From assembly GCA_010015805.1 (NCBI GenBank), contig ML978135.1, positions 558,001 through 622,000 of the forward strand: a stretch of 64,000 bases of DNA, read 5' to 3'. The stretch's first letter is position 1, and the number at the start of each line of letters is the position of its first letter. Origin of the DNA: Rhizodiscina lignyota. Its lineage: Eukaryota. A program made the translations under genes and the position numbers. Positions 23,650 to 58,600 of this stretch are shown one piece after another. The notes beneath the pieces are model-generated. The model searched no databases. It saw only the letters and a program-made list of their open reading frames with translations, and was not told the origin of the DNA.

Positions 23650-24978
23650 ATGGCGAGTGAACAGAAGCGTATCCGCATTGCTGTCGTTGGTGGCGGGATC
23701 GGAGGTCTCTGTCTGGCGCTTGGTCTCTTGCGACACCCACAACTGGACGTACATGTCTACGAAGCGGCACCACAGTTCGCTGAAATCGGGGCTGGCGTAG
23801 CATTTGGAATCAATGCTCAGACAGCGTTGTTCAAGTTGGATCCACGGATCAGGCCTGCATATGAGACGATTCGAACATCGAATGTCGACGCAAGTACGGA
23901 TGCGGAACAGAAAAAGGCAACGTATTTCAGGATCCAGCTGGGTATGGATCATAAGAATGGGAAAGATAAAGCTGATGACCAAATTTGCGAGATCATGTGT
24001 GTTGGAGGCTTCAGCAGCGTTCATCGCGCACGGTTCTTGGATTCGCTTGTAGCGCTACTACCGGAGAAAGTAATGCAAGATAATGTCAGTTTTGGACACA
24101 GGTTTGTAGATTTAAAAGAGCTGCCTGATGGGAAAGTGCAATTGGAATTTGCAAATGGAAAAACTGCCGAAGCCGATGCGGTTATCGGCTGCGACGGGAT
24201 CAAGAGCGAGGTCCGACAAATCCTGCTTGGTAGAGACAGGCCCGAGTCGAAGCCACGATTCACGCACAAATACGCTTATCGTGGCCTTATTCCGATGGAA
24301 CGAGCACGAGCAGAGCTGGGTGACAGGCAAGCTCAAAATAGTCATCACAACCTGGGATACGACGGTCATGTTCTCACATTCCCAATCGACAAAGGCAAGA
24401 CAATGAATGTAGTTGCATTCCAGACCATGGAACGCGACTGGGACCAGTCGGACTGGGTCAAGCAGGTGAAGAAGGAAGACTTGGTGAGAGACTTTCAGCA
24501 CTGGGGGGCCAATGTCAGGAAAATCATCGGCATGATGGAGAGGTGTGACATGTGGGCCCTCTTCGAGCACCCTCCGTCGCACACATATCACAAGAAAGGC
24601 CAGATCTGTTTACTAGGAGATGCAGCGCATGCCAGCACTCCGCACCAAGGGTCAGGCGCCGGAATGGCTATCGAGGACGCGTACATTCTGTCCAGCCTCC
24701 TGGGAGATATTCAAGACACCAGTATGCTGGAAGCGGTGTTCCATGCATATGAAACGGTCAGGAAAGCCAGGACGCAGCTCCTGGTGTCCAGAAGTCACGA
24801 ACAGTCGATGCTTTACGACTTCCAAGCGGATGGAATCCGTGACGACGTATCGAAGCTTGCCGAGATCCTCCCTCGGAGATGGGACTGGATATGGGACGAA
24901 GATTTGGAAGTCGAGTTGAGAGATGCCAGATCAATATTGAACCAGAAGGCGCCGAATGCCAGTAAGCCGAACATCTAA
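23650..24978 (+). CDS. FAD-dependent monooxygenase, salicylate-hydroxylase-like
   Basis: VVGGGIGG, EIGAGV, VIGCDG, LLGDAAHASTPHQGSGAGMAIED motifs. Single exon, 442 aa. Confidence 0.93.
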   Translation: MASEQKRIRIAVVGGGIGGLCLALGLLRHPQLDVHVYEAAPQFAEIGAGVAFGINAQTALFKLDPRIRPAYETIRTSNVDASTDAEQKKATYFRIQLGMDHKNGKDKADDQICEIMCVGGFSSVHRARFLDSLVALLPEKVMQDNVSFGHRFVDLKELPDGKVQLEFANGKTAEADAVIGCDGIKSEVRQILLGRDRPESKPRFTHKYAYRGLIPMERARAELGDRQAQNSHHNLGYDGHVLTFPIDKGKTMNVVAFQTMERDWDQSDWVKQVKKEDLVRDFQHWGANVRKIIGMMERCDMWALFEHPPSHTYHKKGQICLLGDAAHASTPHQGSGAGMAIEDAYILSSLLGDIQDTSMLEAVFHAYETVRKARTQLLVSRSHEQSMLYDFQADGIRDDVSKLAEILPRRWDWIWDEDLEVELRDARSILNQKAPNASKPNI

Positions 24979-28936: not shown

Positions 28937-30716
28937 ATGACACCAAGAGGCCCATTCGTGGGCCTCCGATTTCTGCCCCGAACAGCCATCCGTCCTGTGA
29001 GGCGAGATCAGACGAGACGCATATGTTCGAGCTGCCTACGACATCTGAGGTCGAGGGGTGATTTCAGGGGAGCGGCAGCTGCGAGACCGTTTCCACAATG
29101 GCGGGCCTTGGAAAGCCAGATTCGCCATAGTCGCGGGACACCAACAGCTCAACGGGCCTCGCTGGCTACTGTGGCCAATGGTAAGAAACTCTCTCAGGTG
29201 CGCTAGTTCTAAACTACACTGACAAAATGAGTAGTGAGAGAGAACAATCGCGGGCCCATAGAAGAATACGATGAGCGCGTCCACGCCGGACGGTTGCGCG
29301 ACGATGAGCATCAACGAGGTATCATCGGCCATCTTCAAGACCTCCACGATATGCTCGTCGACTACACTCCCCCCAAAGTTATACATCCAACCATAGAATC
29401 TCTTCAGCCACCTAAGAAGTCCGTATTCAGCTCTCTCTTCGGTGGCGGACAAACAAGTTACAAAACCAAAATCACTATTCCACCAGATGTACCCAAGGGA
29501 TTATATATGTATGGCGACGTTGGCAGTGGGAAGACGATGCTTATGGACCTATTTTTCGAGACGATACCCGGCAACATAAAGTCGAAGACGCGAATACACT
29601 TCCACAACTTCATGCAAGAGGTGCATAAGGAGATGCACAAATTCAAGATGACACATGGCAATGACATTGATGGCATTCCTTTCGTCGCTGCGAATATTGC
29701 AGAGAAAGCCAGTGTGCTGTGCTTCGATGAGTTCCAGTGTACCGACGTGGCTGACGCAATGATTTTGAGGCGTCTGATTGAAAGCTTGATGAGCCACGGT
29801 TCAGTGATTGTCACGACCTCCAATAGACATCCGGACGAACTATACAAAAACGGGATACAACGAGAGAGCTTCATTCCATGTATCAACCTGTTAAAGGAAA
29901 GACTACGTGTGATCAACCTCGACTCAACTACAGACTACCGCAAGATTCCACGTCCGCCTTCTGGAGTGTACTACCATCCATTAGACAAAGCGGCAAAGAC
30001 CCACGCCGACAAGTGGTTCCGCTTCCTTGGTGATTTCGAAAACGACCCTCCTCATCCAGCGACGCACTCGGTGTGGGGCCGAGAGATTGACGTGCCTTTG
30101 GCTAGCGGCCGATGCGCAAAGTTCACCTTCAAAGAACTCATCGGACGTGCAACTGGAGCAGCAGACTATCTAGAACTAATGCGAAACTATGAGGCCTTCA
30201 TCATCACGGACGTTCCGGGAATGAGCCACAAGACAAGAGACTGGGCACGGCGATTCATCACATTTATCGATGCCGTGTACGAGAGTCGTGTACGTGATTT
30301 CCCTCCTTACTTAAACCTCTTAATTGGTGCTGATACCTCGCCAGGCAAAACTCGTCATGACGACCGAGCTCTCGCTAACCAATCTCTTCCTCTCTCATAA
30401 TGAGCTGGAAGAAGCAGTAACGACATCACAATCAACTGGTGATGTAGCGCCTGGTCCAGATAATAACCACGACGTGTCTGACGTTATGCGAAGCCTTATG
30501 GATGATCTCGGCATGAATATGAACATGTTGAAGAACAGTAGTATCTTTAGCGGAGACGAGGAGCGGTTCGCATTCGCAAGAGCATTGAGCCGGCTGAGTG
30601 AGATGGGGAGCCAAGAGTGGGTTGAACGCGGAATGGGCCTGGAGGATAAGGGAGGCAAGCAGGAGATGGAATCGTGGCAGCGTGTGAGGAGTAGATGGAG
30701 AGAAGATAGCCTGTAG
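28937..30716 (+). CDS. AFG1: Mitochondrial AFG1/LACE1-family ATPase, 3 exons
   Basis: Presequence-like N-terminus. PKGLYMYGDVGSGKT (Walker A), LCFDEFQ (Walker B), TSNRHPDELY, ARRFITFIDAVYE, FARALSRLSEM. Confidence 0.95.
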
Positions 30717-31479
30717 GGTGATTTGAGGATTTGCTGAGATACCCATTGAGTGTAAACTCACCAATATGCGGAAGCTTCTCGCAACCGCTGAATGCAATTG
30801 TAACAGACTGGCCCTATAGACTATTTGCTCGCGTGAACCTGCGGAGTAGCTCCTTCATAGACAGACGAGAGCATCCACAGGGAAGGAGGTACAAAAGTTA
30901 TAGCCTTCCAATTATAGTTTAGCGCTGATCGCCTGGTTTCAACCACGTCGTCCTCGTAACTTCTGCGCTGGATTGCATTCCTTACAGGTCGGGCATGAAA
31001 GTCGACCAACCCCATGTTTTCATGAAGAGGCCTCGTACTGTGTATTTCGATGAATAAAAGTTTTACATTTGTCCTGCGGCTTGAGTGCTTTTCATCCGAG
31101 TGGGATGCCTAGCTGCCACTGCATATTGTTTGTCTGCCTATAAACTGGATCCAGCAGTAGTACTAAGTCGGAAAGCCACCTATGATCAAGAATGCCAACC
31201 TATGATAGACGAGCAGGAGCAAACGTGAAAGATAACAAAAGCAGGCAGAAAACTCAATGGCGGCTTTGCAGCCCGCCATATCAAGATGGTGGTGGCTGAG
31301 TCGTACGACATGCAGCCTTGCGATAGTTGCGGAACAACACTTCCCAGAACCTCTGACTTACCATAGGTATATAGATATGCAGGAACCAAAGGGGTTCATG
31401 GCGAGTACTCATTCGTCATGCATTAACATGCACAACTCCAGCGCATTGCCACGCTTTCCGTCAACAATATCAGCCAAGG

Positions 31480-33950
31480 ATGGATAGACATGACCTCGAA
31501 GCCGGCGATCCTCTCCAACCACTATTGACCGAGAATCCAGTAAAGACAAAGACAGTTGGTAGTGCGACATCAACTACAAACTCACCTGTCGCAACCAGTG
31601 AAGCCGCATACCGTGATGAATTGTCACCAACATCCGTTGCAAAGAGCGGGATTCCCGATACAGTTCCTGAAGATGGTGCGTTCCTCGAACCAGTGAATTT
31701 GCCTGCCCCGATGATCCAAGACCCAAAGGAGCCGGCAATCAGTAAGGTCTCTATTCAAACTACAACACGTAGTGGTCAAGCTCCGGAAAAGCCTGGTGGA
31801 CTTCCTGGAGCACACGCATCGTCAAATCGTGATTCCCACGGAATCTACTGGAGGTCGCCTGCCCTCATGGGATCTGGTTGGGCAGCTGGAGTCATATTCA
31901 GTATTGGACATCATCTATTCTACTCTCATTTTAATGGACTCATTGTCGGAAGCACAAACGAAGAGCAGTGGAACATCAGGTTTGTCTCTCCTTGGGCCTA
32001 CAGAGTCTTTTCTCGCAAACTCACTATTGAATTTAGAATTGGCTCTTTATTTGCACTGGTCGTAAAGACCATGCTCACAAGCTCTGTCTGGTTTGCCTAC
32101 ACTCAATGGCTCTGGCGGACTCTGAAGCGCAGAGCGATATCCCTCAGGGGTTTAGACGCTGCATTCAGTGCCGAGATCTCTATATGGTCTCTATTGAATC
32201 ATGAGTTGATCCTCAAGGTACGTATGGGAGCTGTACTAGCATTGATAGCTTGGTAAGTAACTCAGCTCTGTCATGGACTGCACATTTATTTCGTCACAGG
32301 TGCCTGCAGATTCCACCTTTGATAACGCCCGCTACCCTTCTGGTCATCCCCAGTTCCAATACCATACGTAATGAAACGAATGTCCTTAGCCTGGATATTG
32401 CGAATGCCACCAGTGCCAATTTCTTTGCGTACTTTATTCCGCTTAACGACACTGGCAATTTTCCGAACGCGAATAACAAACAGCCAGAGTTTCGACGGGC
32501 CACGCTCAATTCTTACTCGACTATCAACGGCCTCGGCCTCACTTGGTCAGATCCTTCCTGTAACTGCTCCTTTCGATGACTGTTCGTACCCTCTCAGCTT
32601 CTCGGCACCGTACGTGCACTGTACAGCAGCAAACTCGACCGTTGAACGTATTACGGATGCCCTTCTTGCGAAGATGAATTCTACTTGGGAAAAGAGCGGC
32701 CTGGCATTCATCGAAGCATATTACGCCTTTGTCCCTTCCCATGACGCGGATATGGAGAACATGACGACAATTTTCTATGAGGGCAAGAACTATACGGCCC
32801 TTGACCAGCCACGATTGCAAGAACAGCCAATGAACGCGACCAATGAGCTTTGGACGAAATACTATCGATATTCGCTTGATTCAAACGGGAACCTAAGATA
32901 CGACTTAAATGGAAAGCCCGTCGTTGTTCCAAATTACTCAGTGTGCAGTCTCTGGAACGCCTCGTACGAAGTCGAATTTTCATTCGCAGATGGCGTTCAG
33001 ACTGTCTCGAATAAAGGAATGAAACTTCTCCATCCCGTGGACTACCCTAGCAGTAATCCGAGTGAGGCATCTGACCCGGTGCAGATGGCATACTCGGCCC
33101 TGTTCATGGTTCTCACAGACCAGGTAGTGGGCATGATGGGCATATTCATCAACGACAGAACTTCAACACCTCAATATGGTTCAATCGATACGGAAATCGA
33201 GCACAACAGTCTTCTTGGGAGCAACGATCTGGACTATTTCTTCTATCTCAATTCGCTTGTAACCAAGCAAAATCAGACCACGTACTCTCCTCAACGACTC
33301 TCAGACAAGGAACTTGCCCAGAACCAGACACTGTCTTTCCTGCTACAACAGCTGTCTTTCAACGCGACAGTCAGCCTCATGAATGATCCTCTGCTCGCGT
33401 ACGTTCACAAGCTGCGTCCATGAATGAGACCGACACTAATTGCTACTGTAACAGATCCGAAGTAATGGCAAATGTCACCCATACAACACCCGTCAATCGA
33501 TATTCGTACGACGTAAGGAATCTTTGGCTCGCGTACGGTCTTGGTAACTTCTTCGCCCTCTGCGCCGTCGCCCTCGGTGTAATTGCCTTCATAAGCAATG
33601 ACGCCAGCCACAACAATGCTGTCTCAACGCTCTTGTCCATAGGCCGAGACCGGAGTTTGGATCCTCTGTTCCCGCCGTGCTGTCATGGAAGACTCCCCCT
33701 GCCGGAAGAGACTATGAATGCGCCGTTGAGGGTCCTGAAACAAGATGACGGAGTTGAAAATCTCATTCCGCCTCCAGGTGTTAAAATCGAGCCCTCTTGT
33801 AGAACTTGCGAAGCTCGAGCTGCTGCCGCAGCGTCTCCCAGATCTCCGAACACGGAGCGACGCCGTCTAAGCTCGTTCACTCGCTGGACAACAGGACCAA
33901 AGCCGTCGGAACGGAAGTCCAGCAGATTGGGATCTCTTGATTCCGTGTAG
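31480..33950 (+). CDS. Hypothetical multi-pass membrane glycoprotein, apparently carrying a frameshift near 32490
   Basis: GHHLFY, AYTQWLWRTLK, ITPATL, GPRSILTRLS, C..WNASY, LWLAYG blocks and many NxS/T sites. Introns near 31980-32036, 32253-32299 and 33399-33455. Confidence 0.75.
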
Positions 33951-37516: not shown

Positions 37517-38076
37517 GTCAGCTCGTTTGTCGCGATCCAGTCTGTGCTTACCGAGAACTGCAAGGCGTGGGACAAATTTTAAGGATGACCCAATGGAGTT
37601 CTACCTGTCAACGTGGTTTGCCGAGTGGCAGAAGTGGCCATCCATCAATATCGGTCACATCCTCGAATCATCTCCCCATTCCACGCGCACGGAAGAGCCG
37701 CTACCCGATCACATCCCGGAATGCTTTTTGCGCCTGGATCCCTGGGGCCTTGACTCGGTGACTTGTGGTCTTATTACCCGGCTGTTGTGCTTACGACTAC
37801 TCGGCACCTTCGTTTAAGGCCTCCCCAAGCATGCCAACTGCCCATGTTGTATTACGTTACCCTGATCCGTTTTAGTTCAGGCTCCTATTTATCTCACGGC
37901 TTCTTCACGACTATCTCAACATCTACGCTAGCCAGCCTCAATCAGGTATCAAGAGGTGCTGAGTAAGTGACGTGGACAGGGATATACAGGCGCTTCCTTA
38001 AAGCATCTTGTTGCTTCCTCGAACAATCAACTGGATCAATACCACCCGAGGTTCTTCGCCAGCATCAAGATACAAG

Positions 38077-40071
38077 ATGAATGTCTTCTCATCCACCATG
38101 GAAATCCTTCCAGCGAAAGAGTTGCCGTTCGCACTGGTATTGTTAATGGTCGCTGCCGTACTATATCGTTATGTTCAGTACAGCAAGGGGCCAATGATCG
38201 ACCACATACCGATCTTGGGAAAAGAGCTTGGTGGAGTTGACAAGCGAAAAAGCGAATATGCGAAGAATGGTCTCTCAATGTTGAAGACTGGCTACCAGCA
38301 GGTTTGTCGTCATCAGTTTGTGACAATTGCTAAGTTCACCGAGCTGACGGTGTACAGTACAGCAGGGGAGTCGTTCGGATTGATACCGCCGATGGTAAAA
38401 TCTAACCTCTCTACTGGTATGCCGAAATGTTTCCAATGGCTGATTCACTTCCAGGACCTCGAATCTTGCTTGGCCCAGAGCTGCTCGAAGAGGTCAAGAG
38501 CAAACCTGACAGCGTTGTCGACAACAGAGGCCCCATTAGAGAGGTTCGTCATTTTGATATAGATCGACTTAGCATCTGGCTGCCCTTAAATTCAGCATAC
38601 CAGAGCCCATGGCCTGACACTTTTACAGTCGATATCGGCAAAGTATACCGCACTACCCGAGACAGACGCAATAATGCTTCACAATATCAAAGCCGAATTA
38701 ACACCAAAGTTGGGTATGTAATCCCGTCACTTGTGCGCCGAGTACTTGAGAAGTATTGTTCATACCTACTGATCATTGATGGACAGGAGCCTTAAACGAG
38801 AAGTTGTCAAAAGAGGTCGATTATGCAGTAAAGGTGGAATTGCCAGAAGCTAAAGGTGCGTTACATATAATACGTTCACATTAGAATCTCATACTCATAA
38901 ATGTTACACAGACTGGACCCCGGTTAAAGGATATGCAAAGCTTCTTCGAATCGTAGCCATGGCCTCAACCCGCATTTTCCTCGACTCGGACCTTGCGCAC
39001 AACGAGGAGTGGCTGGAGACCTCGATCGGATATACCGTTAGTGTTGCAAATGGCTCCCGCATGATCAAACAATGGCGCCCGTGGCTGAGGCCGTTCGTCT
39101 ACCGCTTTCTCCCGGAGATTCGAAAGCTTCATGAGACTCGAGCGACGGCAATCCGCTTGCTGAAGCCAATTATTCAGGAGCGCCGCGAGTCCGAGGGCAA
39201 AGAAGGGTATGAGAAGCCAAACGACTTTCTGCAGTGGATGATGGATGCGCGCATCAAGAAACACCTCCGGGATAAGGACTACTACTACCAGGCTGAGCTT
39301 CAACTTGTCCTGTCATTTGCCGCTATCCATACGACCACAAATGCGGTGACCAACATGTTGTATGACCTCGGGACAATGCCCGATGTTGTGGACATGATTC
39401 GACAGGAGGTTAAAGAGGAGTTGGAGAAGACTAATGGTGTCTGGGATGGAAAGTTGATGAAGTCCTTGAAGAAGACGGACAGCTTCATGAAGGAGAGCCA
39501 GCGACACAACCCGATCGGCTACAGTACGTTTCTATTCTCAACTCCTGTCAAGATGTCGCATTTGACTAACACGCATCGCAGCACTCTTTACTCGACGAAT
39601 CCTTAAGCCGTTCACCCTTTCGGATGGAACATACCTCCCAGCCGGCGCAAATGTCACCTCGAACTCGCACATGATCTCTCACGATAGTGATTTCGTTGGC
39701 GACAACCCATGGGAGTTTGACGCGTTAAGGTACTACAAGAAGAGCCTTGCAAGTGACGGCCCCGCCAAGGAGGCTGCTGGCAAGCACCAATTCGTGTCTC
39801 TATCTATGGGATCGCAAATGTTTGGCTATGGACGTCACGCTTGCCCGGGCCGCTTCTTCGCCGGCAACGAGATCAAGTTGATATTGGTGAAGATATTGAT
39901 GAGTTACGATATCAAGCTAGAGAATACGACGGAGAGGTACAAGAACTTCTCTTGGGAGGGCAGTGTGGGTGTTCATCATGTGATATGTTATATCTCTGCG
40001 CAGTTACTGACACGTCTTAGAACATGCCCGATGTCAGCAAGAACATCTTGATCAAGCGCTTGCAGACGTAG
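38077..40071 (+). CDS. Cytochrome P450 monooxygenase (ent-kaurene-oxidase-like class), 8 exons
   Basis: N-terminal TM anchor, I-helix FAAIHTTT, K-helix KESQR, heme motif FGYGRHACPGRFFA. Seven GT-AG introns give a continuous frame ending IKRLQT*. Confidence 0.93.
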
Positions 40072-40740
40072 AAAAACTCAAGTCCTCCCAATGAGGAAAA
40101 TACCCCCGAAGGCTCCGAGTCCTTCTGAATACTACAACATCGATAAGCCGGCGCTTCAGACTGGTTTAACTTAGTAGCGAAGATCAGCATGGCAGTTAGG
40201 TATCACAGTTGTCCTTCGATATTCACTTACTCCAGAGATGCTGGGATGGCACATTACTGCATGACGCTTCCCTACACCAGGGTAGCTGCGATATATGTAC
40301 ATACTCGGGAGTCTCGACACTTGTTTCGAGACGTGAATAATAATAATAATTTATTCAAAGATATGAGTTCTCGTACCTCTCATTTCTCTTCCTTCCTGTT
40401 CATTAAGCCTGGCTACACGCCTTTCCTATACCGCTCTGCTCGATTCTGCTTACATTGCCCATCCTTCAACCTGTTACCAAAACACCCTTTCCCATAACCA
40501 TTCTTCATTCCAGATATGGTGCAGCAATTCACACCACTATGCAGTTCCATTCCTAATCGTCATGCGCAACCGAGCGTATGCGCGAGCTACGCGAGCCATT
40601 CTTCTCTATTCGGAGAATTCCGATTTCGTACTTCGATACCGCTGCTCGTAGCAGGTCCGACAAATACGAGAAGAAGCGAAAAGCGCCGCCGCAAGCCCAG
40701 AAACCGGGCTACAAATGACAATAAACGATCTTATCCGTCA

Positions 40741-43349
40741 TCATTCAGGTTCGAATCCGACGCCAGGAAACAAATTCCTCCCGTTCATTTCCAGTCCGAA
40801 ATCCAGCAAAGTTAATATTCGCTTCCGAACCGCACTCGCCAGCGTCCCAGAATCTCCTTCCAAACATCCCTTATCTTCCTTCGACTTCCCTAGCCGCGCA
40901 TGCCACGCCCACAGTCCGTGCAATCCTCCCGGGAATGGTTCTCTTCTTCCATCCCACCCGTCCTTCAGCCTGTACTTCCCCTTTCCTTCCTCTTCCCTAA
41001 CACACGCTTTTAGCGAGTGCTGGTCCTGGTCCTTCACGCCGAGCGCGACGCCGTCCATGAATGGCAGCGGGTGCCGATTTATGCCACAGTGCGTGACTTT
41101 GGCGCACATCATGAGCATGCCTTCATTGAAGACCCAGTAGAACAGGCCAGGTCGCGGGCCGTCTGGGAAGCGTTCATTGTAGAGAGTCTCGTTGAATGTG
41201 AGGCTGCATGTCGTGGAAAGGACAGCATTCGTGGTGCGGGTGTTCGGTGGACCGAACACGAGGAGGTTGTTGTTCCAGGAGGCATCGCCAAACTACATTA
41301 CTGTTAGAAGTCGTTGTTCTCAACAGTACATTTAAGCAGCATGGAGCAACTTACCGCTGGAGCAGAAGGTCCACTGCGAATTAGCGGCGTGAGGTCCCGT
41401 AGCAGTATCGTGTCCGAATCGACCCACACTCCGCCGTACTTGTCGAGTAGAAGATTGCGAACAATGTCAGACATGCTGTCCTTACGAAGCTTGATTTTCT
41501 TCGCATACTCCTTGTCTGACCACTCTGGCATGTTCTCAACACAGGTTCCCGCCGCTTCTTGATCCGGGTGGAACTCGCGGAACTCGATGTAGTGGCCCCA
41601 CTCCCCAGTCGAATATTTGTCGATCACGGCTTGCGGAATATCGCTCTCCATATGCCAATAGATCACCCGATGTCCATCGCCAAGTCGCTGCGTTGCAAGG
41701 AATGCCTCGATCGCGAGAACATTCGTTTCATGCCAGGGTCCACGCCAGAAGAAGTGGAATATAAAGCCTCCTGGAGAGACCGGATAGACCGGGCACTCAG
41801 ACTTGAGGAATTCGAGCTCCCAATCAACAAGTTGGCTGGAGCTTGGAGTGATGTGATTGCTCTTGACGAAGTTTTCGACACAATCGACGGGGTTGTCCGT
41901 CTCGCCCCATACCGCTGGTGTGATGTTGTGTGGCGTGAAGAAGCGGTGCACATCGTCCAAAATGTCTACAGTTTGTTGTTCTGTAGGTTGGTAATAAGAG
42001 ACGAGATATGCAAGTATAGCGATCATTCCGACTGCAGTGTATAGCCGTGTCGGCGTTGGGGCTGGAAGAGAGGGGCGTTCGATGCTATTATCAGTATTTG
42101 GGCTGATGTGGCCATTTAGGCCAGATTCCATGTTATCAGTATTCTGCCCTTCATTTTCTGTGGTCGTAGGTAGAGGCTGGTAGCTGTGTCTGCTCGGCTG
42201 TACGCTTGTATAATAGTTATATGCCCACGTGGAAATGCTGATTATTCCCGCGCCCCATACTGCCTTGACCGTGAGAGTCTCTGCTCGGAGATGCGGGAAC
42301 AGCATGCATTGCACGATTGCCACGGTCACCATGGAAGCCGAAGTGCCAGCAAGCTTGACTAGGTTGTCTTTCTTGCGGAGAATGTTTGCAACCACTAAGC
42401 CCGTGGCAGCGGTAAATATGATGACTGTAGTGTTTGCAAGAAGGGGCAGGCTGAGGTTCGGTTGGATGCCTTTGATGACGTCTTGTACGGAGACCGATCG
42501 ACTGATTCTTGCATCCATGATGGCAACACTAATACCAGAGAACAGAGTGCCCCACACGTAGAGCCAGAACTAAGAGCAAAAGGTCAGTCTCGACCTCACA
42601 CGTCAACTGATATGTCCACCTTACCTGTGCTGTCCAGAAGGGGATTGGCTGCTTCATTATCAGCTCCGTGTATATGCTTGTGAACCCAGAGATGATGGCA
42701 ATGGTCAGTCCGATAATGGTTCCCGTCAAATACTGGCCGCCAGTTGCGTTACCGTCATCCCCATACCCATAGCTCATGCCTATTAGCGCCGACAGGCGAT
42801 CAACGAAAGCCATTGGGTTCTGAAAAATGAGGAGGCCAATGGAAAGACATGCCAGTGATAGCCATGGCCTCCAGTCCAGTAACCTTCGAACAATGAGATG
42901 ATGTAAGATCGCGGTGATTGGGAGCTTGGCAAGGACAGCAGCCTGCAGCAATGAGGGTGTCGTATACTGTAGACCAATGAGGTATAGAATGTTATTGGCA
43001 AAGTAGAGTAACGCAGGAAAGGCGTAGAGTGTGTATCCTTTCAGAAATCGGCTCCTTCCAGGCGACTCTTTTAAGTTGACGGCGTCGATAAAATCCCTTA
43101 GCGTCAAAGTACCAGTCTTTCTCCGCAGACTACGGAGTAAAAAGAACGATGCGAATAGAAGTTTGACAACTTCCGCTCTGGCGCAATGTTAGTGGCGTCT
43201 TGCATCATATTCACGATGACCACGTACCCAAATGTGATGAGAGTCGACGAAATCAGTACATTGGATTGCAGAGCGCCATACAAAAGAACTGTTCTAAGGG
43301 TATCAAAAGCCACGAACGCCGGAAGGAAAAAGTAGTGGTTGTAAGTCAT
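40741..43349 (-). CDS. Nucleotide-sugar transporter (SLC35A/UDP-Gal-type) fused to a DxD glycosyltransferase (GT32-like), ~813 aa, 4 exons
   Basis: Exons 43228..43349, 42625..43177, 41355..42569, 40741..41292. Transporter motifs AEVVKL, YAFPALLYFANN, KLPITA, WLSL, SGFTSIYTE, DNLVK. GT motif SDIVRNLLLDKYGGVWVDSDTILLRDL. Confidence 0.85.
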
Positions 43350-44450
43350 CGCGATGTTCAATGCGACAGACCGCTAAATGAACAACAGATGGAAAGAGAG
43401 CGTGTGAATGGAAATGAAGAGCATCAGAGATGACAAGTAATTTTTCTTTAAGAGGAGGCGTCCCCGTCCTCAACGTTGACTCTCGCTTGTGCAACTGTTA
43501 CCGCTGGTTATGCGAGGGGTACGCGCCGCCTCCCAACACCACCCTGTCCAATAACATGTTTAATAATTGCAAATGGAGTGGTGAAAGAATCACAGATATA
43601 AAGACCTGAGTCGTGTTTGTCCAAAAAGGGGCGGTTTTGTGGCCATGAATGGCTGCCCAACATGCATAATCCCTATTAGGTACCGTTTACGCCGCTATCC
43701 TTGCGAGCTGAGTAGATACTATCCAGCTACAGTTGTGTTAGAGCTGACGATCAGATCTTATCATAGCATTGCCGAGAACTTCAAAAGTATCTTGGCAACG
43801 ATAAAGCATATTAACTCTTCTCAGTTTTTGTTATGTCTTGATACTTAGGGCGATTGCAATTTTCGTTAGTCGGGCTGCCGCATATGCAACTCATGCATCT
43901 CGATTCCAATAGCAAGAGCGCCGATTTCCGACTCTTTCTATCGTCGTTTAGAAAAGTCGAGCTCGGTATGTTTCCCCACGTCCAGAACATCTTATACGAT
44001 TTTCGGTCGAGAAGTATTCCGTACTCCGTAAATGAGGCGCTATCTGCGCCGTGGCAGCTTGAAGCATATCAGCGAATAGGCTCGGGCGTCCTGCCATAAA
44101 GGCTAGTCGGCGAGCTCGTGAACGAAAATTGAAAGCCTTTTGATCATTTAAATAAGGGTCCGCAGAGCTCCAGGACTCCAAGTAAGTGTTAGCGGTGTAC
44201 AAAGACATTCGAATTACAACTCAGAGTCAAGCTTACCCGTTGGATACCCCAGCAGAGTGGTTCAGTTTCTGCGCATGTTTATGTTTGCGATGATGCATTG
44301 AGATCGGAGAAAAGAAGGGTGGGGGTATAGTGGAAGATTTCCAATTTGCTAAGAGATATCTTTGATAATCTCGCGCGAGTCGCACCGCTGCAGGGGCTAT
44401 TAATACATACAACACGAAACCCCGGCTCTTCCCGCCTTTAGCATGCAAGC

Positions 44451-45568
44451 TTAACTGATGAAACATAAGCATCCGAGACCGATATAGAAAATAAACAGCG
44501 GGTATACGGCAATAGCAACGCGATTTCTTAGGACGCCAGAGCCACCAAGGATACTGACACCTGCTGCGAGCGACCACAGGATCAAGACTATGTATACGGG
44601 GATGCGCGCAATCCAGTAGAGGTGGAAAGCTGAGAGGATCGAGGCGATTACAAGAGGGAAGATGGTGTAACCGATGATGCAAACGGATTGGAAGAACGAA
44701 CTGCAACGTAGTCAGTTTTCGCATCTCTGATACGTCGCTGGATGAGATGGCATACATGTTCCCTCCAAGAAGCTTGATCTGCAAAGTCACAACGGCTTCG
44801 CCGACCCAAACCATTGTGAAAACGCCGGAGAAGACAAGCTGCTTCTGGTCTTCGTGTGCAGACATTGAGAGGAAGAAGCTGAGCAGAAGACAGAACAGCA
44901 ACGGGCCCCTTGACGAGTATTAGCAAATTGTTCGAAAGGTCGTTTTGGATGATTGTACCATAAATCCCAATCTCTCAAGCCCTCGCTCATGCCTCCTTGC
45001 AGCACGACGTCGGCATCTGGCCATCTGCCAACAAGCCCTCTGAGCCTGTCCGTCACGTTCCCCTCTCCGCCCATAAGGCCTTGAGCAGCTTCTCCTCTCT
45101 CCTCTCCGCCAATACCGCCGCCTTCTCTCATAAGCATGCCGCCAAGGAGATATTTAGGCCATAGCACAAGCATCATCTTCTCCCACACAGCCTTCAGGTC
45201 TCGTGACAACGTTTCCCAGACGCTCTCGTCAATTGTGTTCGTAGGTGCTCTCCGGTCTTCTCCCGGTATTTGCGATGTGAGATAGTTCTGAGTGCTGCGT
45301 GAGGAGCCTTGAGCTTGTCCGATGTTGCCCGTCAACGGGGCGCGATCGGAGGTACCAGAAGGATTAATAGGATCGTCGAGGTCATCGAGAGTTGCTGCAT
45401 AACAGTCAGCATACTGTTTATACCCCCTCAAGCGGCATAGAGGTTGAGAGCAGTGGACATACCGTCGTCGGGGTCGATGAGGTCGCGCTCAATTGCGTCG
45501 TTGTCAAAGTTGCTGTAAGGGTTGGCGGAGTTACCGCCACCAGATGAAGATGGCATCATGGCTGCCAT
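44451..45568 (-). CDS. YIP4: Yip1-domain Golgi membrane protein (Yip4/YIPF6-like), 4 exons
   Basis: NTIDESVWETLSRDL, LRDWDLW-GPLLFCL, TLQIKLLGG, C-terminus ...YPLFIFYIGLGCLCFIS*. Confidence 0.88.
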
Positions 45569-45853: not shown

Positions 45854-47249
45854 ATGCCGGAAGAAAAGATTCTGGACGATATATCACATCGACGGTATAA
45901 TCCGCTACGAGGCAGCTGGTTGTTGGTCTCGCCGCATCGGACGAAACGGCCATGGCAGTATGATTTCACGTGTGAAAAGTTGGGACGAAAGAAGAGCTGA
46001 TGCATGGCACAATATAGAGGACAGCAAGAGGCGCCGAGTAAAACCACGCTTCCAGAATATGACCCTTCAGTACGAATACTCTTCTGTGAATTTCTCCGGT
46101 GCCGTTTCTGAACAGCGTCCAGTGCTACCTCTGTCCGGGCAATAAGCGGGCGCAAGGCGACACCAATCCCAAATACGAAAGCACATTCGTATTCGTGAAC
46201 GACTACAGCGCTGTGAAAGAGGAACAAGCAGAATATGCCGCTCATGATCAAGATGGCAGTATGTCTTTCTAGCTTTCTCAACAAGTGTCCAGCAATGCGC
46301 CGGTACTCACGATTGTATCCAATCCAGCACTCTCTACACGTCTTCTGCGCGCCGAAGCAGTAACAGGGAAATGTTATGTTCTCGCTTTCACTCCGTCGCA
46401 CAATCTCACTCTCGCCGACCTATCTCCCGCGCAAATCCTACCTATCATCACCGCCTGGACTCGAATTTATACCGCACATCTCTCTCCGCACTCCCCACTC
46501 GCTGCACTTGCATCGTCTACCACTCTCCAGCCTTCTAGCCATGATGCCGACGTCGCAACACCCAATGCGCAATACAAATACATGCAAATTTTCGAGAACA
46601 AGGGCGCCGCGATGGGTTGCTCGAATCCGCACCCACACGGACAAATATGGACAACCACAGGCATGCCAGAGGAACCAGGCATTGAACTGCACAACCTGCA
46701 GAAATATAGGAGAGAACAAGGAGGTGCGAACCTGCTTGAAGATTATGCGGCGCTGGAGAGTGACAAGAAGGAGAGAACGGTGTTCGAGAATGCGACCTTC
46801 ATCGCAGTATGCCCGTGGTGGGGGATATGGCCATTCGAAGTAATGGTCATATGCAAGAAGCACAAGCTTAGTCTCGTAGATCTGGACGATGCCGAGCGAG
46901 AAGGACTGGCAGAGGTGCTAGCTGAGGTGACTCGAAGATACGACAACTTGTTCGAGACCCAATTTCCATACAGCATGGGATTACATCAGGCACCATTGGA
47001 GGGAACAAAAGAGGAAATAGAAGCAAGTCATCTCCATATACACTTCTATCCTCCGCTATTGAGAAGTGCGACGGTACGAAAGTTTTTGGTTGGGTATGTA
47101 GAGATAGAGTGGACTCATCCAAAAGGAGCTAATGCTAACCCACATGCAGGTACGAACTGATGGCGGAGCCGCAGAGGGACATCACCCCAGAGCAGGCGGC
47201 GGCACGGTTACGTGATTGCGGTGGAGAGTTGTACAGGAGAAAACTCTAG
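45854..47249 (+). CDS. GAL7: Galactose-1-phosphate uridylyltransferase, ~5 exons
   Basis: [48 protein letters not shown] (catalytic HPH), [22 protein letters not shown]. Confidence 0.97.
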
Positions 47250-48239: not shown

Positions 48240-49307
48240 ATGGACAAGTCGGGGAATACGGGTAGCTTGGATGATTACAACTACTTCACCCATCCGGCCT
48301 TTCAGATCTTCACGGTCATCGGCCTCCTGTATATATCCACAAAGATTGCGAGCTTCGTGCAGCTAGTGGCAAGCATCTTTGTCTTGCCTGGCACATCCGT
48401 ACATTACCAACCCTTCTAAATCACCCGATATAATGCTAACATCTTACCTTAGCTCTCTAAATTCGGTCCCAAGGGAAGCTGGGTTGTCATAACCGGTGCG
48501 TCCGACGGTATTGGGAAAGAGTTCGCCCTCCAGCTTGCGCAGAAAGGCTTCAACCTCGTCCTCGTATCGCGTACAGCCTCGAAGCTCCAAGACCTTTCGA
48601 CTGAAATCAAAGACAAACATGGCGCCGAGTCCAAAGTGCTCGCCATGGACTTCTCCGCAAACCGCGATAAAGACTATGTGGCGTTGGAGAAGCTTATCAA
48701 GGACCTCGACATCGCCATTTTGATAAATAACGTGGGCCTGAGCCACGCTATACCGGTGCCGTTCTTGGAGACACCACACGAGGAGATGACGAATATCATC
48801 ATGATCAATTGTTTAGCTACGCTCAGGGTAACGCAGATCGTTGCGCCGAGCATGGTGGAGAAAGGACGGGGATTCATTCTTACAATGTCCTCGTTTGGTG
48901 GTCTGCTACCTACACCTCTCCTCGCAACATACTCTGGTAGCAAGGCTTTCCTCCAGCAATGGTCATCAGCTCTCGGCTCGGAACTCGCACCAAAGGGCGT
49001 CACCGTGCAATGCGTTCAGTCGTACCTCGTCACTTCCGCCATGTCGAAAGTGCGAAGATCCACCTCCCTCATTCCAAGCCCAAAGACATTTGTCAGGAGC
49101 GTTCTGGGCGGCATTGGTCAAAGTAGAGGTGCACAGGGGATGGCATACACGAGCACACCATTCTGGACTCATGCGTTTATGCACTGGGGCCTCGCTAATA
49201 CCGTGGGGACCATGAGCACGATGGTGGTGAATATTAACAAGAGCCTCCACGAGGGAATTAGGAAAAGAGCGCTAAGGAAGGCGGAGAGGGATGCAAAGAA
49301 ACAATGA
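48240..49307 (+). CDS. IFA38: Very-long-chain 3-oxoacyl-CoA reductase, 2 exons
   Basis: N-terminal TM segment, [36 protein letters not shown], dilysine-like tail ...DAKKQ. Confidence 0.92.
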
Positions 49308-50584: not shown

Positions 50585-52321
50585 ATGATGAAGCTGCTGA
50601 GATCGTTGCAATTGGTTGCTCTGACGAGCTTCGCGAGCGCGTATATCACCAAAGATGGGAAGGTTATAATACCTGGGGCGTCTAGTTTCAACGGTTTAAA
50701 CCTCGTACCGCAAATGGGATGGGATAATTGGTATTGATAGCGCAGAGCTTAATATCTCGAGCTGATATTGACATTGGACATAGGAATGCATTCGGATGCA
50801 GCATAAACGAGACTCTGGTGCTCAATACAGCCCAGAAAATGGTCGACTTTGGCCTCCGCGATCTCGGCTACAACTACGTCGTCCTCGATGATTGCTGGTC
50901 TGAAGGACGAAACTCGAGTGGATATCTAGTCCCCAACCAGAAGACTTTCCCACATGTACGTCATATCCTCGGTATTTTCTGTGATCGAGTACACGCGGTT
51001 GACATAGGTCGTTACAGGGCATGAAATATGTCGCCGACAAGGTTCACGACCTGAATATGAAATTCGGCATGTACTCCTCGGCTGGTATCTACACTTGCGG
51101 CAAATATCCAGGCTCCCTTGGCTATGAACAGAAAGATGCAGACGTTTGGGCAAGCTGGGGTGTCGACTACCTAAAGTACGACAACTGCTACAATCAGGGC
51201 CAGTCTGGTACCCCGAAACTCTCCTTCGACAGATACAATGTCATGTCACAAGCATTGAACAAGACGGGCAGGAAGATTCTCTATTCATTGTGCAACTGGG
51301 GCGATGGTAAACTCCTCGTGACTCGAGCTGTTGGTGTCTGAGCACTTACTGAGATCTCCTCAAAGATAATCCTTTTGATTGGGCATACACCATTTCGAAC
51401 AGCTATCGTATGAGCGGCGATATTTACGACAGTTTTGATCGTCCAGATTCCCGATGCCCATGCACTGAGGCGATCGGATGCTCCTGGCCGGGATTCCACT
51501 GCTCAGTAATGAATATCTTGAACAAGATGGCAGCAATTCAATCACGCTCACAGCCTGGCGCCTTCAATGACATGGATATGCTCGAGGTCGGCAATGGCGG
51601 ACAAAGCGGTGCGTTCTCGAGTCTTGCCCAACTTCTAATTCAGAATCGTGCATGGGTGCTTACACATATCGCAGACGATGAATACAAAGTGCACTTCTCG
51701 ATGTGGGCCATGAATTCCTCTCCGCTTCTCATGGGCACAAATGTCTTGACGCTCACGCCCGCGAACCTGGCGATTTACTCCAACCCAGCAGTCATTGCGC
51801 TCAACCAGGACCCTTCCGGTAGCGTTGGCATCCGCAAGTGGCGCACAATCACAAAGGATGGCGGCGAAATTGCTTTGTGGACGCGTGAGATGAACAACAG
51901 CGATACCGTCATCGCTCTCATCAACGCGGCAAACAGCACCATGACGTTGACTGCAACAGCGGCAGACATTTTCTTGGACCAGAGCACAGCCGGAAGTTTC
52001 GCGCCCGCGCCTGAGCTCTCGGAGTCATGGGATGTGTACGATCTCTGGGGCAACAGAATGTCGAATGATGAAGCTGCGACTGTCTTGAACGGTACGGCTC
52101 CGACAATCGAGGCGACTAGCAACAGTACGACGAGGTATAATGCTACCGCGTTGAGCTATGCCGATGGCCTGAATGCCAATAATACGGCGCTGTTAGGCAC
52201 CAAGGTTGGAACAATGGCACCGCATGGAAGCTGGAGTGCGAAACTTGATCGCCACAGTATTGGACTGTTTAGGTTGCGGCAGGCTTCGAATAACTCAAAG
52301 AGGAAGAGAGACGAGCTATGA
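50585..52321 (+). CDS. Secreted alpha-galactosidase, GH27, multi-exon
   Basis: Signal peptide, [29 protein letters not shown] (nucleophile Asp), RMSGDI (acid/base Asp), [18 protein letters not shown]. Confidence 0.95.
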
Positions 52322-54981: not shown

Positions 54982-55647
54982 AGTTGATTTAGTGTGTTAT
55001 CTGTAGTATATTAGAGACACGAATCGGCACGAACAATGTCATTTCATTTCCAATTGGGTAGAGCATGAAATACTTTGATGGAGAAACGCATTAGTCGCTG
55101 TTTAACTCCATTGAGGTGTGCAGTTTGCCATGGCTTTGGTGAGTTTGTATATAGGAAAGCGCAAAATTCAATCAGTAGAAAGAAGAATTCAAGACATTAC
55201 CATGGGATAGGGCTACCTTATCGTACAAATTTTGCTTACAGCGGTATTGTATTCTCAGATGATACCTACAGTAGACGTTCACATCTTGATAGCTTAAGAG
55301 TCTCTTCTGACCTGCTCTAAATCCACTGGCGTTCTGGTCTGCTGAGCTATCGGCTGCTTTCAAGCTGTATAGGCTTCAATTGCAATACTTCGTGGAGTTC
55401 GAGAAACAGGGTAGAGCGGTATGGGAGAGCGGCCCCTTGTAATATAGCCTCTCTCCTATTGCGGGCTAGCCTGGGGTGTGCCTTGGATGTGGCGCTCGCA
55501 CGCGCGCCTGATGCACGGTGATCGCAAGCCGCATTATCCAGATCGCGAACTTTCGGCGTCGCGTCGTTTGAAGAAGACGAGGAAGACAAAGACGACTTTC
55601 AATGCTATCGAAAGAATGACCGCGGAGCAAGCAGACATCCACCCACA

Positions 55648-58600
55648 ATGAACGGAGACCCCCTTGCAGCTGCAGCTGCAGCTACACGTCGCCCAGCGAC
55701 AAACGGCGTAAACAACAATGACGACACTCTGAGTGACTCTCTCAGAAACCTGTCACTCAATGGCCCCGCAGTCACAAATGGCGCCCGTCGAAATAGCGAC
55801 CGATATGCTTCTCTCTCCTCACAATCCCCTTCTACTACGCGACCGAGCGCTCTTCGCCGCAGCTCCAGTGCCCTGAGTGTAGACCGACGCTCTGCATCCC
55901 CTGCTTTGACCAGGAAAACATCAACGTCGTCGTTGCGCAACGGCGACTCTTCAGGAACACCACTTCGCAGCTCGTCGAGGAGGTCTTCGGCGCATTTCCT
56001 CTCTTCTCCCACATTTGGAGGAAGGTCGCCTCTTGCGCCGCAGATGGAGGAGGCACTGCCGCCTCCACCAACGGCGGCATCAATTGCTGCAGATCACTTT
56101 CGTAAAGAGCTGGACTTGCATGGTACGGACACATCCAAAGTCAACACCGTGGTCATACTTCACGATGCGTGTTATGGTCACCGCTATTCGCGCCCCAAGA
56201 CGAGCAAGAGCACTCTGAGCATGATTGTTGAGCGTCCGGAGAGGATACATGCAGGCATACTAGGAATCACATCGGCGTATATAAGGCTAGGAGAGAGACA
56301 TGCTGAAGGCCAAAACCCGCCACATCCACGCAAAGAACCAAATCCAGCTCTTCCGTTCAAGATCAAGAGGACCTCACGTTCAATGCCAGTCACCTCTCCG
56401 GTGGTCACAAATGTCCATGGAACGGCTTGGATGAGCGAATTGAAGACTATGTGCGAATCTGCGGGACAGAAGCTCGCAACAACAGGAAAAGAGCTGGTCA
56501 GACCGGATGCAGGTGCTAGGGGTGCCAGCGCAGGGAAGGCAAAGTTGCACGAAGGTGATCTATATCTCTGCTCAGAGTCGCTCGACGCGTTTCAAGGAGC
56601 ATTGGGTGGCGTATGCGATGGTATCGATGCCGTATTTGAGGGTGTCAAGTCAGGCCAGGGACCTTCGAGTGCTTTCGTATGCATTCGCCCTCCAGGCCAC
56701 CACTGCTCTGCAGATTTTCCATCGGGTTTCTGCTGGCTCAACAACGTCCATGTTGGCATCGAGTATGCAACGCAGACCCACGGCTTGACACACGCAGCGA
56801 TCATCGACTTTGATCTCCATCATGGAGATGGCTCCCAAGCGATTACGTGGCGTCACAATGCCAAGGTGGCCAAAATGCCGGCTAAAACGCCAGCGAGCAA
56901 GAAGACTGCCATTGGATACTTTAGCCTTCATGACATCAACTCGTATCCGTGCGAAGAAGGGGAGGACGAGAAAGTGCAGAACGCAAGCTTGTGCATTGAG
57001 AACGCTCATGGTCAAAGTATTTGGAATGTGCACCTTCAGCCATGGAAGACTGAGACGGAATTCTGGCAATTGTACGAATCGCGGTATACAATTCTGCTGG
57101 ACAAAGCACGAAACTTCCTCCGAGCGCATACGCAACGATTGCGGAGTGCGCCAAACCTCCCTCAGTCCAAAGCGGCTATATTCCTCTCGGCAGGCTTCGA
57201 CGCAAGTGAATGGGAAAGCCAAGGCATGCAGAGACACAAGGTCAATGTGCCCACCGAATTTTATGCCCGTTTAACTGCCGACGTTGTGAAGCTGTCTAAA
57301 GAAGAAGACCTTGCGGTGGACGGCCGCATCATCAGTGTCCTAGAAGGCGGCTACAGTGACCGAGCGCTTACAAGCGGTGTCCTGAGTCATTTAGCTGGTC
57401 TTTGTGAAGGCCAGACAGCACTGGAAGATGAGAAGCGGATGCAGAATGGGCTAGCTTGGGACATGGGAAAGCAGATGGCTGCTCTCGCTCTTGGAACGAT
57501 CGATGTCAAGATGGAGGATGAAGATGAGATGCCAACCTCCAAGGTCCAAAAGACATACAGCTATAAGCCAGAATGGTGGCATATAAGCTCCCTCTCCGAA
57601 CTCGAACTACTCTCCAACCCAGCCCCGCCTCAGCCGCCAAAGAAGCCAGCCAGGACTGGAGCACCCCCGACGTATTCTTCACCAACTCAGTCATTCACCG
57701 CGAAAGTTGTTGATCCAACAAAGATTCGCACATCCTCCGGACGCTATGCCTCTTCAACATCTCCCTCTCGGATGCCTACCCCACCACCACCTGATGTCGA
57801 CTGGGCTACTGCGGCTTTCGAACTTCACAAATTGTTGGTTCCTACCGATCGCGAAACGAAAAGCTGCAAGCCAGAGCACTTATCGGAGACTCGCGCAAAG
57901 AAGGATCGTCAATCTGTGATTGGTCCTACCCAGCCTCAGCCTCTATCTACCGCTCTCAACGCAGGTGGTCGTCAGCTTCGAGATCGCAAAGCGCGCGCGC
58001 CAAACTATGCTGATCCTCAGTCGGACAACGAATCTGTGACTTCGAGGCGCTCAGTTTCACACTCTGATCGAAGAAGAACGATCGCAGAGTTCCCACTTGT
58101 GCCCAGTGAGGAGAACATCCATCCTGGTGGTCGACGACTAAGCGTCGCATCAAACGTAAGTGGTGTCAGCGGCGTCGCGCCGAGTGTTGCGGCATCCAGA
58201 AAGCCCGCACTTTCAAAGCCCGCAGGTGCTGGCGTACAGGTCAAAAAGACTCGTGGGAAGCCTGACAGCACCACTACCGGTGCCCCGCCAGTCCCAAGGG
58301 TCCCATCTGCATTCGGTGGAAGCAGAGCCAAGCCAGCAAGTACAGCAGCTGGAGCCCAGAGAAAAATCTCACCTAATGATGCCGGCTCAGACGATGCCAT
58401 GAATGCATTAACGAGCGGGATTCAACGCATCAAGATCAAGGTTCCAACAGAAGAAGAGCGCGCCGCGAAGGAGGCCAAGAGAGCTGCGGATGAAGCAGAA
58501 AAGAAGAAGGCCACTACTGCAGCAAGGGCGGGAGCAAAGAAAACGCCTGCTCCTCGCGCTGCAAAGGTGCCGGCTTCAAAGAAATCTGCTGCATTATCGA

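Follow-up and report, generated by a model that had tools for sequence, protein, structure and literature searches.

Physical association between a nucleotide-sugar transporter (NST) and a glycosyltransferase (GT) has been described for proteins of the mammalian Golgi apparatus. According to the excerpted text of a review (PMC9368800), SLC35A2 is found in non-covalent complexes with UGT8 and B4GalT1/4, and SLC35A2 and SLC35A3 are found in such complexes with Mgat1-5, for which functional coupling has been suggested. Here, we report on a gene of the fungus Rhizodiscina lignyota in which an NST and a GT are encoded by one reading frame. The gene was analyzed within a stretch of 64,000 nucleotides of contig ML978135.1 (assembly GCA_010015805.1, positions 558,001 to 622,000 of the forward strand), hereafter the window, and its product, P0001, is predicted to consist of an SLC35A-type transporter, a linker, an additional transmembrane helix (helix 11), and a GT32-like domain. 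As in the mammalian complexes, an SLC35A-type transporter is physically joined to a transferase that would use its cargo. The mammalian partners are separate polypeptides, studied by Förster resonance energy transfer, proximity ligation assay, and NanoBiT, whereas the link in P0001 is covalent, imposes a 1:1 ratio, and passes through helix 11 to a GT32-like partner.

The excerpted texts of PMC9368800 and PMC6709370 make no mention of a natural NST-GT fusion. The excerpt of Yau et al. 2016 (PMC5082852) mentions, in one sentence and without topology analysis, a transporter-GT gene fusion in the green alga O. tauri (ostta19g00600). The algal gene resembles that of R. lignyota in combining an NST-type domain with a GT and in being uncharacterized, but it belongs to a green alga and consists of a TPT-type transporter and a GT92 domain, whereas P0001 combines PF04142 with PF04488/PF05704. 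In Kluyveromyces lactis, Guillen, Abeijon and Hirschberg reportedly described in 1999 contiguous genes for a Golgi N-acetylglucosamine (GlcNAc) transferase and a uridine diphosphate (UDP)-GlcNAc transporter. This pair is likewise a fungal transporter genetically linked to the transferase consuming its substrate, although the genes are said to be adjacent rather than fused into one polypeptide and the GT to be of another family. In a search of one literature library, covering main texts, no account of a fungal NST-GT fusion came up. An earlier note on this DNA, drawn up from the sequence of the window, had stated that no characterized protein of such architecture was known to its author. This still stands, with the reservations that P0001 already carries a hypothetical-protein annotation and has some 20 fused relatives, and that the algal transporter-GT fusion is in print (excerpt of PMC5082852). 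The fungal protein combining an SLC35A-type transporter, helix 11, and a GT32-like domain, and the modular 11-helix clade to which its transporter belongs, appear to be undescribed; the general idea of joining a transporter to a GT was preceded by the brief mention of the algal gene, in which both families are others.

One reading frame for transporter and glycosyltransferase

The fusion gene lies on the minus strand of the window and comprises four exons totaling 2442 nt (122 + 553 + 1215 + 552), that is, 813 codons and a stop codon (Table 1). The three introns have GT..AG ends, fungal-type 5' sites, and, toward their 3' ends, a sequence resembling a branch site (CTAAC or CTGAC), in full agreement with the earlier note, which had proposed four exons with canonical splice signals and about 813 codons. 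P0001 is the NCBI entry 'hypothetical protein NA57DRAFT_80691 [Rhizodiscina lignyota]' (813 aa), to which exon 3 was 100% identical in a protein database search; the gene model has the same length and the sequence listed for P0001. All of the transporter and GT motifs quoted in the note were located at the expected places, namely, AEVVKL (residues 42-47), PALLYFANN (95-103), KLPITA (125-130), SIYTE (208-212), and DNLVK (293-297) in the transporter half, RLYTAVGMIAILAYLVSYY at 400-418, and SDIVR...YGGVWVDSD at 592-611. The junction between the two halves lies within exon 3, which is uninterrupted and which on its own matches the end of the transporter family and both GT families. Thus, as the note had also argued, the fusion is independent of the splice model.

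An assembly error removing a stop codon between the halves would have produced a spurious fusion. The Logan contig of the sole public run that contains the window DNA displayed 0 differences and 0 gaps over positions 40600-43500, ruling out an artefact of one assembler. This run probably represents the source sample and does not provide independent data. No direct repeats were found at the transporter/GT junction, where a single 18-nt imperfect inverted pair, likely to be due to chance, was detected, and the GC content ranged from 0.49 to 0.57 throughout the gene without a compositional break at the junction. An assembly or repeat artefact was therefore rejected.

The fusion is conserved in other fungi. 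A search with exon 3 as the query recovered 20 long relatives (710-2025 residues, E <= 1e-3), of which 19 contained PF04142 plus PF04488 and/or PF05704 (both GT families in 17, one of them in two more). Fused members belong to both Ascomycota and Basidiomycota and were found in Rhizodiscina, Saitoella complicata (two paralogues), S. coloradoensis, Exophiala viscosa, E. sideris, a Phaeosphaeriaceae species, Sporobolomyces salmonicolor, S. koalae, S. pararoseus, and Rhodosporidiobolus azoricus; those of Rhodotorula taiwanensis (773 residues) and of the chytrid Rhizophlyctis rosea (690 residues) were found separately. The 20 relatives align over their full length, across each of the three exon junctions and as far as the C-terminal end. 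Mean pairwise identity amounts to 0.52 for the GT core and 0.42 for the transporter core but drops to 0.15 for the linker (calculated from 18 rows, after removal of the truncated P0007 and of P0019, which has an internal gap). This pattern points to constraint on both halves.

Metagenome DNA provided 17 related loci, 10 of which carried a transporter followed by a GT on one strand. The junction was in one stop-free frame in 8 of these 10 loci, and the whole stretch was stop-free in 7 of the 8. Locus L003 contained an intronless open reading frame (ORF) of 808 codons with both Pfam domains, and L015 and L016 showed a frame change in the linker, presumably an intron. The fusion is thus real and not an artefact of a gene model. 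The family is rare: among 1.84 billion cluster representatives, exon 3 had only 30 matches with E <= 1e-30 and 316 with E <= 1e-3.

Production of two proteins from the locus, i.e., a transporter mRNA that terminates within the linker plus a type II GT starting at Met372 or expressed from an internal promoter, would agree with the existence of stand-alone transporters ending right past helix 11 and of stand-alone type II GT relatives (P0044 and P0053), and with the composition of the public runs containing the window DNA, which are limited to one run of unknown kind and list no RNA run. We hold this alternative to be very improbable. A stop between the halves is absent here and in 8 of the 10 other loci, the linker is in frame in all 20 aligned proteins despite its changes in length, and the residue aligned with Met372, the start site considered in the earlier note, is methionine in only 1 of the 20 sequences.

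Domain assignments and predicted topology

The first approximately 345 residues of P0001, which the earlier note had attributed to an SLC35A-type transporter on the basis of short motifs, matched PF04142 (Nuc_sug_transp, drug/metabolite transporter superfamily) in a hidden Markov model search (5.3e-18; 65.6 bits versus a cut-off of 27) over residues 30-343 and profile positions 34-315 of 315. A family profile built from the 20 relatives matched the solved structures of the cytidine monophosphate (CMP)-sialic acid transporters (CSTs) of maize (6i1r, 1.3e-24, chain residues 21-303 of 322) and mouse (6oh4, 3.3e-18; 6oh2, 1.6e-17), whereas the single-sequence phmmer match of P0001 to 6i1r was only 1.4e-08. 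The 10-helix core aligns end to end with these transporters, at low identity. Substrate-site residues of the mouse protein (mCST) named by Ahuja and Whorton 2019 (PMC6508934) were placed on P0001 through the profile alignment. The positions of K55, K124, Y214, and K272 are kept as K46 (20/20 sequences), K125 (19/20), Y229 (20/20), and K297 (18/20), respectively, whereas N210 is replaced by Q225 (19/19; a conservative change) and S261 by A286 (20/20). P0001 also differs from the CSTs by helix 11 and by a 390-residue domain predicted to be luminal. According to the excerpted text of PMC6508934, UDP-galactose (UDP-Gal) and UDP-GlcNAc transporters have Gly in place of Y214 and Ala in place of S261. 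The Q225/Y229/A286 signature is a full match to neither the CMP-sialic acid nor the UDP-sugar transporter class. Residues 1-345 are thereby assigned, by profile and residue matches, to the SLC35A-type NSTs, and this half would be expected to transport a nucleotide sugar.

The C-terminal domain matched PF05704 (Caps_synth; 3.8e-07, 30.2 bits versus a cut-off of 24.5, residues 581-615) and PF04488 (Gly_transf_sug; 1.1e-05, 26.4 bits versus a cut-off of 23, residues 575-622). Both scores exceed the cut-offs, bearing out the GT32-like domain with a DxD motif that had been proposed. Residues H497, W500, G604, G605, W607, and D611 are present in all 20 aligned sequences and D609 in 19 of them. Enzymes of the GT32, PF04488, and PF05704 groups include Och1, the mannosylinositol phosphorylceramide (MIPC) synthases Sur1/Csh1, and A4GALT/A4GNT. 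P0001 shares with them the SD..R...L..YGG.W.D.D signature, an upstream H..W, a membrane anchor, a predicted luminal location, and ESM Atlas neighbors belonging to GT32 and Gb3_synth. It differs in that its anchor is helix 11 of the transporter rather than an N-terminal signal-anchor, and in having additional conserved N-terminal (residues 421-485) and C-terminal (661-810) regions with eight cysteines. A stem of 65 residues (identity of 0.33) separates helix 11 from the GT core.

With residues 425-813 as the query, GT32 clusters of the ESM Atlas were the nearest by features (0.96). With respect to a GT-A fold, the Atlas's own model gave a template modeling (TM) score of 0.66 over 317 residues to a basidiomycete GT32 cluster and of 0.58-0.59 to plant alpha-1,4-glycosyltransferase (Gb3_synth) clusters, the model of the whole protein being poor (predicted local distance difference test, 0.58; predicted TM score, 0.43). 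The nearest relatives of the GT domain are all uncharacterized, and the NCBIfam families gave 0 matches on P0001 and P0044. In the PDB, clostridial GT44 glucosyltransferase domains aligned around the DxD motif with non-significant E values (0.015-0.37), which provide no evidence of kinship. GT32 enzymes are retaining, so an alpha linkage is expected; by this family analogy, the chemistry of the P0001 domain would also be retaining.

It appears improbable that one of the halves is non-catalytic, the transporter acting as a mere polytopic or Golgi-retention anchor or the GT domain as a lectin-like pseudoenzyme. This alternative would accommodate P0034 and P0035, which match the GT region by phmmer without a Pfam GT match, and the R. 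taiwanensis protein (P0229; 43% identical to P0013 and outside the 20-row alignment), in which G-D-E replaces D-x-D and which also has no Pfam GT match; P0229 may be a pseudoenzyme or have a variant metal site. However, the substrate-binding lysines, the H..W motif, and the DxD motif are kept in P0001 and in 18-20 of the 20 relatives, and both cores are far better conserved than the linker.

The SLC35A type of the transporter, Ala286, and the metal-type DxD motif together point to a UDP-sugar as the probable donor. The alpha-galactosyl/mannosyl transfer that the earlier note associated with GT32 enzymes is at most a candidate activity for P0001. A donor of another kind, such as a CMP- or guanosine diphosphate (GDP)-sugar used in a chemistry unlike the classical GT32 alpha-transfer, is in our view unlikely, though not negligibly so. 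In its favor, the closest solved relatives are CSTs, and Tyr229, present in 20/20 sequences, corresponds to CST Tyr214 and to Gly in the UDP-Gal and UDP-GlcNAc transporters, which makes a CMP-type donor possible. Against it, Ala286, also present in 20/20 sequences, is the residue found in UDP-Gal and UDP-GlcNAc transporters instead of the CST Ser261, and the conserved DxD motif suits metal-bound nucleoside diphosphate sugars rather than CMP-sugars. Fungal GDP-mannose transporters belong to a different Pfam family, which was not among the matches of P0001.

The linker varies from 21 to 93 aa among relatives. Helix 11 is directly preceded by a lysine or an arginine in all 20 aligned sequences (Arg400 in P0001). 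Eight cysteine columns are kept in 17-20 of the 20 sequences, all of them in the GT part (P0001 residues 455, 484, 568, 659, 693, 699, 727, and 773), and no conserved cysteine column was found in the transporter part of this alignment. Recurrent N-x-S/T sequons, at N440 (9/20) and N664 (11/20), are also both located in the GT part. This asymmetry fits a disulfide-bonded, glycosylated, luminal GT domain, and the termini of mCST are thought to be cytoplasmic (excerpted text of PMC6508934). Residues 421-813 are thus predicted to face the lumen, with helix 11 serving as the anchor in a modified form of the type II arrangement. The earlier note had proposed that an extra helix places the GT in the lumen. 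This proposal is supported, as one helix follows the transporter core and all eight cysteines and both sequons lie beyond it, with the qualification that helix 11 was not brought in by the GT (see below).

We consider it likely that P0001 is an importer of a pyrimidine, most likely UDP, sugar tethered to a retaining luminal transferase. It would be a single 813-residue membrane protein of the Golgi apparatus or the endoplasmic reticulum, in which residues 1-345 would constitute an SLC35A-type antiporter of 10 helices bringing in a pyrimidine nucleotide sugar. From a cytosolic transporter C-terminus, the chain would pass through the variable linker to helix 11, which would cross back to the lumen and thereby anchor, in the manner of a signal-anchor, a GT32-like domain that is disulfide-bonded and dependent on metal (DxD). 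Tied 1:1 to the transporter, the enzyme would lie in the patch of membrane where its donor enters, and the imported sugar would be added as an alpha-linked residue to a luminal acceptor (glycolipid, glycoprotein, or wall glycan). The fusion may thereby offer a kinetic benefit, i.e., channeling of the donor.

Several results weigh against this proposal. For the transporter, hydropathy called nine of the 10 core helices, the tenth (about residues 325-343) resting on the CST alignment, and the base-recognition positions are mixed, with Q225 and Y229 where CSTs have N and Y and UDP-sugar transporters have N and G, which leaves room for CMP- or other donors. Transporters of the same clade also exist in stand-alone form, including an R. 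lignyota paralogue described below, so fusion is not necessary for transport. For the GT, the Pfam matches are short (35-48 residues about the DxD motif) and exceed the cut-offs by 3-6 bits, no significant sequence match to the GT part was found among the solved structures of the PDB, the Atlas model of the whole protein is poor, and P0229 has lost the D-x-D sequence. Lysines and arginines, counted over 15 residues on either side of helix 11, are not clearly biased to one side and do not decide the orientation. For the locus, no RNA run was listed among those containing this DNA, and the nearby GAL7 and GH27 genes were absent from the mostly short flanks of 17 related loci (see below).

The eleven-helix transporter clade and its partners

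R. lignyota harbors, on another contig, a stand-alone paralogue of the transporter (P0050; NCBI KAF2102660.1, NA57DRAFT_71649; 425 aa), which shares 43% identity with P0001 over residues 8-424. It comprises the transporter core together with the linker and helix 11 and terminates six residues past this helix. Among 44 full-core proteins examined, ten distinct clusters end 0-7 residues past such an eleventh helix, and five of these are represented by gene models of named fungal genomes (Rhizodiscina, Xylariales, Microbotryomycetes, and Pseudohyphozyma, the latter with two). In metagenome locus L014, the ORF at positions 1955-2974 likewise stops directly past helix 11, and no GT-like sequence was found within 10 kb downstream of it. 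Helix 11 is therefore, from its distribution, a trait of the transporter clade and not an import with the GT. Beside the L014 transporter, a frame of 301 residues on the minus strand (4384-5289) is rich in collagen-like G-A-x / G-P-A triplets, with a cysteine-rich tail after them.

Other members of the clade carry different C-terminal domains, which are known from gene models. Two proteins of Rhodotorula paludigena encoded by the same contig, two locus tags apart (P0088 and P0092), combine the transporter with GT61 (PF04577), and proteins of Chlorociboria (P0138) and Cudoniella (P0161) combine it with acyltransferase-3 (PF01757). In the chytrid Gaertneriomyces (P0155), the transporter is followed by a domain without a Pfam match, for which the nearest Atlas cluster (0.96) has GT8 on 45% of its members; this domain is possibly GT8-like, which we treat as a lead only.

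A quick tree of the transporter core (40 rows, near-duplicates and rows without a full core being left out) had a low resolution. Stand-alone forms were interspersed among fused ones, and the GT61 pair was sister to four basidiomycete GT32-fused members (Shimodaira-Hasegawa-like approximate likelihood ratio test [SH-aLRT], 90). The GT32 label requires at least four changes on well-supported branches of this tree, the resolution of which is too low for the order of events. In a quick tree of the GT domain (33 rows, with an outgroup that is not clean and in which two long branches meet), all 23 fused members were grouped (SH-aLRT, 92) with two short metagenome proteins, possibly fragments of fused genes. 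Outside this group fell the type II GTs that stand alone, namely, P0044 from a metagenome, P0053 from the stramenopile Phaeothamnion, and P0061. More distant relatives of the GT were uncharacterized proteins of Azospirillum, choanoflagellates, and Mortierellomycota. Together, the observations on the family would agree with a type II GT having become joined to an 11-helix transporter early in the fungi, with losses and domain swaps thereafter.

The main rival of the channeling proposal is that the fusion provides co-targeting and co-expression only. The two activities would then be in the same cisterna at a fixed stoichiometry, and the donor would mix with the luminal pool without being channeled. 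The length and variability of the linker and the 65-residue stem argue against a fixed geometry, the occurrence of unrelated C-terminal domains (GT61 and acyltransferase-3) on the same clade means that no co-evolved interface is required, and stand-alone members exist. That the fusion has been kept repeatedly and independently in groups as far apart as chytrids and Dikarya suggests a selective benefit, but co-targeting alone could supply it, and no result that we obtained weighs against this alternative. We regard it as a serious possibility, although one from which we lean slightly away.

Extending the proposal of a tethered importer and transferase to the whole clade, we tentatively suggest, with more doubt than confidence, that SLC35A-like transporters with an eleventh helix and a luminal C-terminus constitute a general fungal device repeatedly docking different glycan-building or -modifying enzymes (GT32-like in P0001, GT61 in R. 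paludigena, possibly GT8-like in a chytrid, and acyltransferase-3 in Leotiomycetes).

Neighboring genes and biological meaning

TABLE 1 Positions in the window of the fusion gene, its parts, and other genes
Feature	Position	Strand	Basis
NST-GT fusion gene, full coding region (stop codon 40743..40741)	40741..43349	-	Sequence and reading frames, same as P0001
Exon 1 (ATG at 43349; residues 1-40 and 2 nt of Gly41)	43228..43349	-	N-terminus aligns with homologues
Intron 1, 50 nt	43178..43227	-	GTACGT...CTAAC...CAG
Exon 2 (residues 41-225; transporter helices 2-6)	42625..43177	-	PF04142 5.9e-10
Intron 2, 55 nt	42570..42624	-	GTAAGG...CTGAC...TAG
Exon 3 (residues 226-630; transporter C-terminal half, linker, helix 11, GT core with DxD)	41355..42569	-	PF04142 end and PF05704/PF04488 on exon alone
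Intron 3, 62 nt	41293..41354	-	GTAAGT...CTAAC...TAG
Exon 4 (residues 631-813 and stop; GT domain C-terminal part)	40741..41292	-	Kept to end in homologues
NST core, residues 1-345 (introns 1 and 2 in span)	42210..43349	-	PF04142; profile match to 6i1r, 6oh2
Predicted cytosolic linker, residues 346-395, with Met372 (42131..42129)	42060..42209	-	Poorly conserved
Helix 11 and flanks, residues 396-420 (hydrophobic core about 400-419; Arg400 before it)	41985..42059	-	Hydropathy
Predicted luminal GT32/Caps_synth-like domain, residues 421-813 (intron 3 in span)	40744..41984	-	Pfam, ESM Atlas, cysteines and sequons
DxD motif D609-S610-D611 (GAT TCG GAC)	41412..41420	-	Read directly
Bicupin	9920-11314	-	PF00190, two stretches
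DUF1275 membrane protein	11707-12633	+	
Long frame, 910 aa	18603-21332	-	No Pfam match
Flavin adenine dinucleotide (FAD) monooxygenase	23620-24975	+	
AFG1-like ATPase	29231-30397	+	
Long frame	31375-33950	+	No Pfam match
Multi-exon cytochrome P450, convergent, ending ~700 nt from 3' end of fusion gene	38002-40051	+	PF00067, in two ORF segments
Two overlapping long frames between fusion gene and GAL7, probably one spliced gene	44233-45488	-	No Pfam family
Galactose-1-phosphate uridylyltransferase (GAL7)	46273-47160	+	PF02744 2.1e-49
Short-chain dehydrogenase, looks like 3-ketoacyl reductase type	48453-49307	+	PF00106 4.5e-41; weak Polysacc_synt_2 4.1e-4
GH27 alpha-galactosidase	51003-52321	+	PF16499 5.8e-26, PF17801
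Open frame of 1336 codons with histone-deacetylase domain	55522-59529	+	

The GAL7 and GH27 genes, located 3-9 kb from the fusion gene on the opposite strand, are suggestive of galactose metabolism. In tblastn searches, GAL7, GH27, and four other neighbors gave 0 matches at the 17 related metagenome loci, a test of low power because most flanks are short; the only long flanks, those of two loci, contained BUB1-like and coenzyme A-transferase genes or nothing recognizable. A galactose gene cluster as evidence for UDP-Gal was rejected, since the neighbors were absent from the flanks of these loci, and the proximity of GAL7 and GH27 is treated as a coincidence until synteny is checked.

Which transporter feeds which GT, and whether transporter-enzyme complexes channel the donor, are open questions in Golgi biology. 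A conserved natural fusion would offer evolutionary evidence for the selection of proximity, and this design could show how the supply of a sugar is coupled to its use. With two activities sharing a substrate in one gene, an assay of either half would deorphanize the other, and fused and split forms would provide a simple system for measuring channeling. If the clade is indeed a general docking device, selection would have made the direct hand-over of the donor a modular principle in Golgi glycosylation, and each fusion would be a natural 'Rosetta stone' showing which transporter feeds which enzyme. The alternative partners GT61 and acyltransferase-3 on the 11-helix clade turn a curiosity into a possible design rule, and the family, which occurs in black yeasts, red yeasts, and chytrids, may represent a part of fungal glycan synthesis that has yet to be explored.

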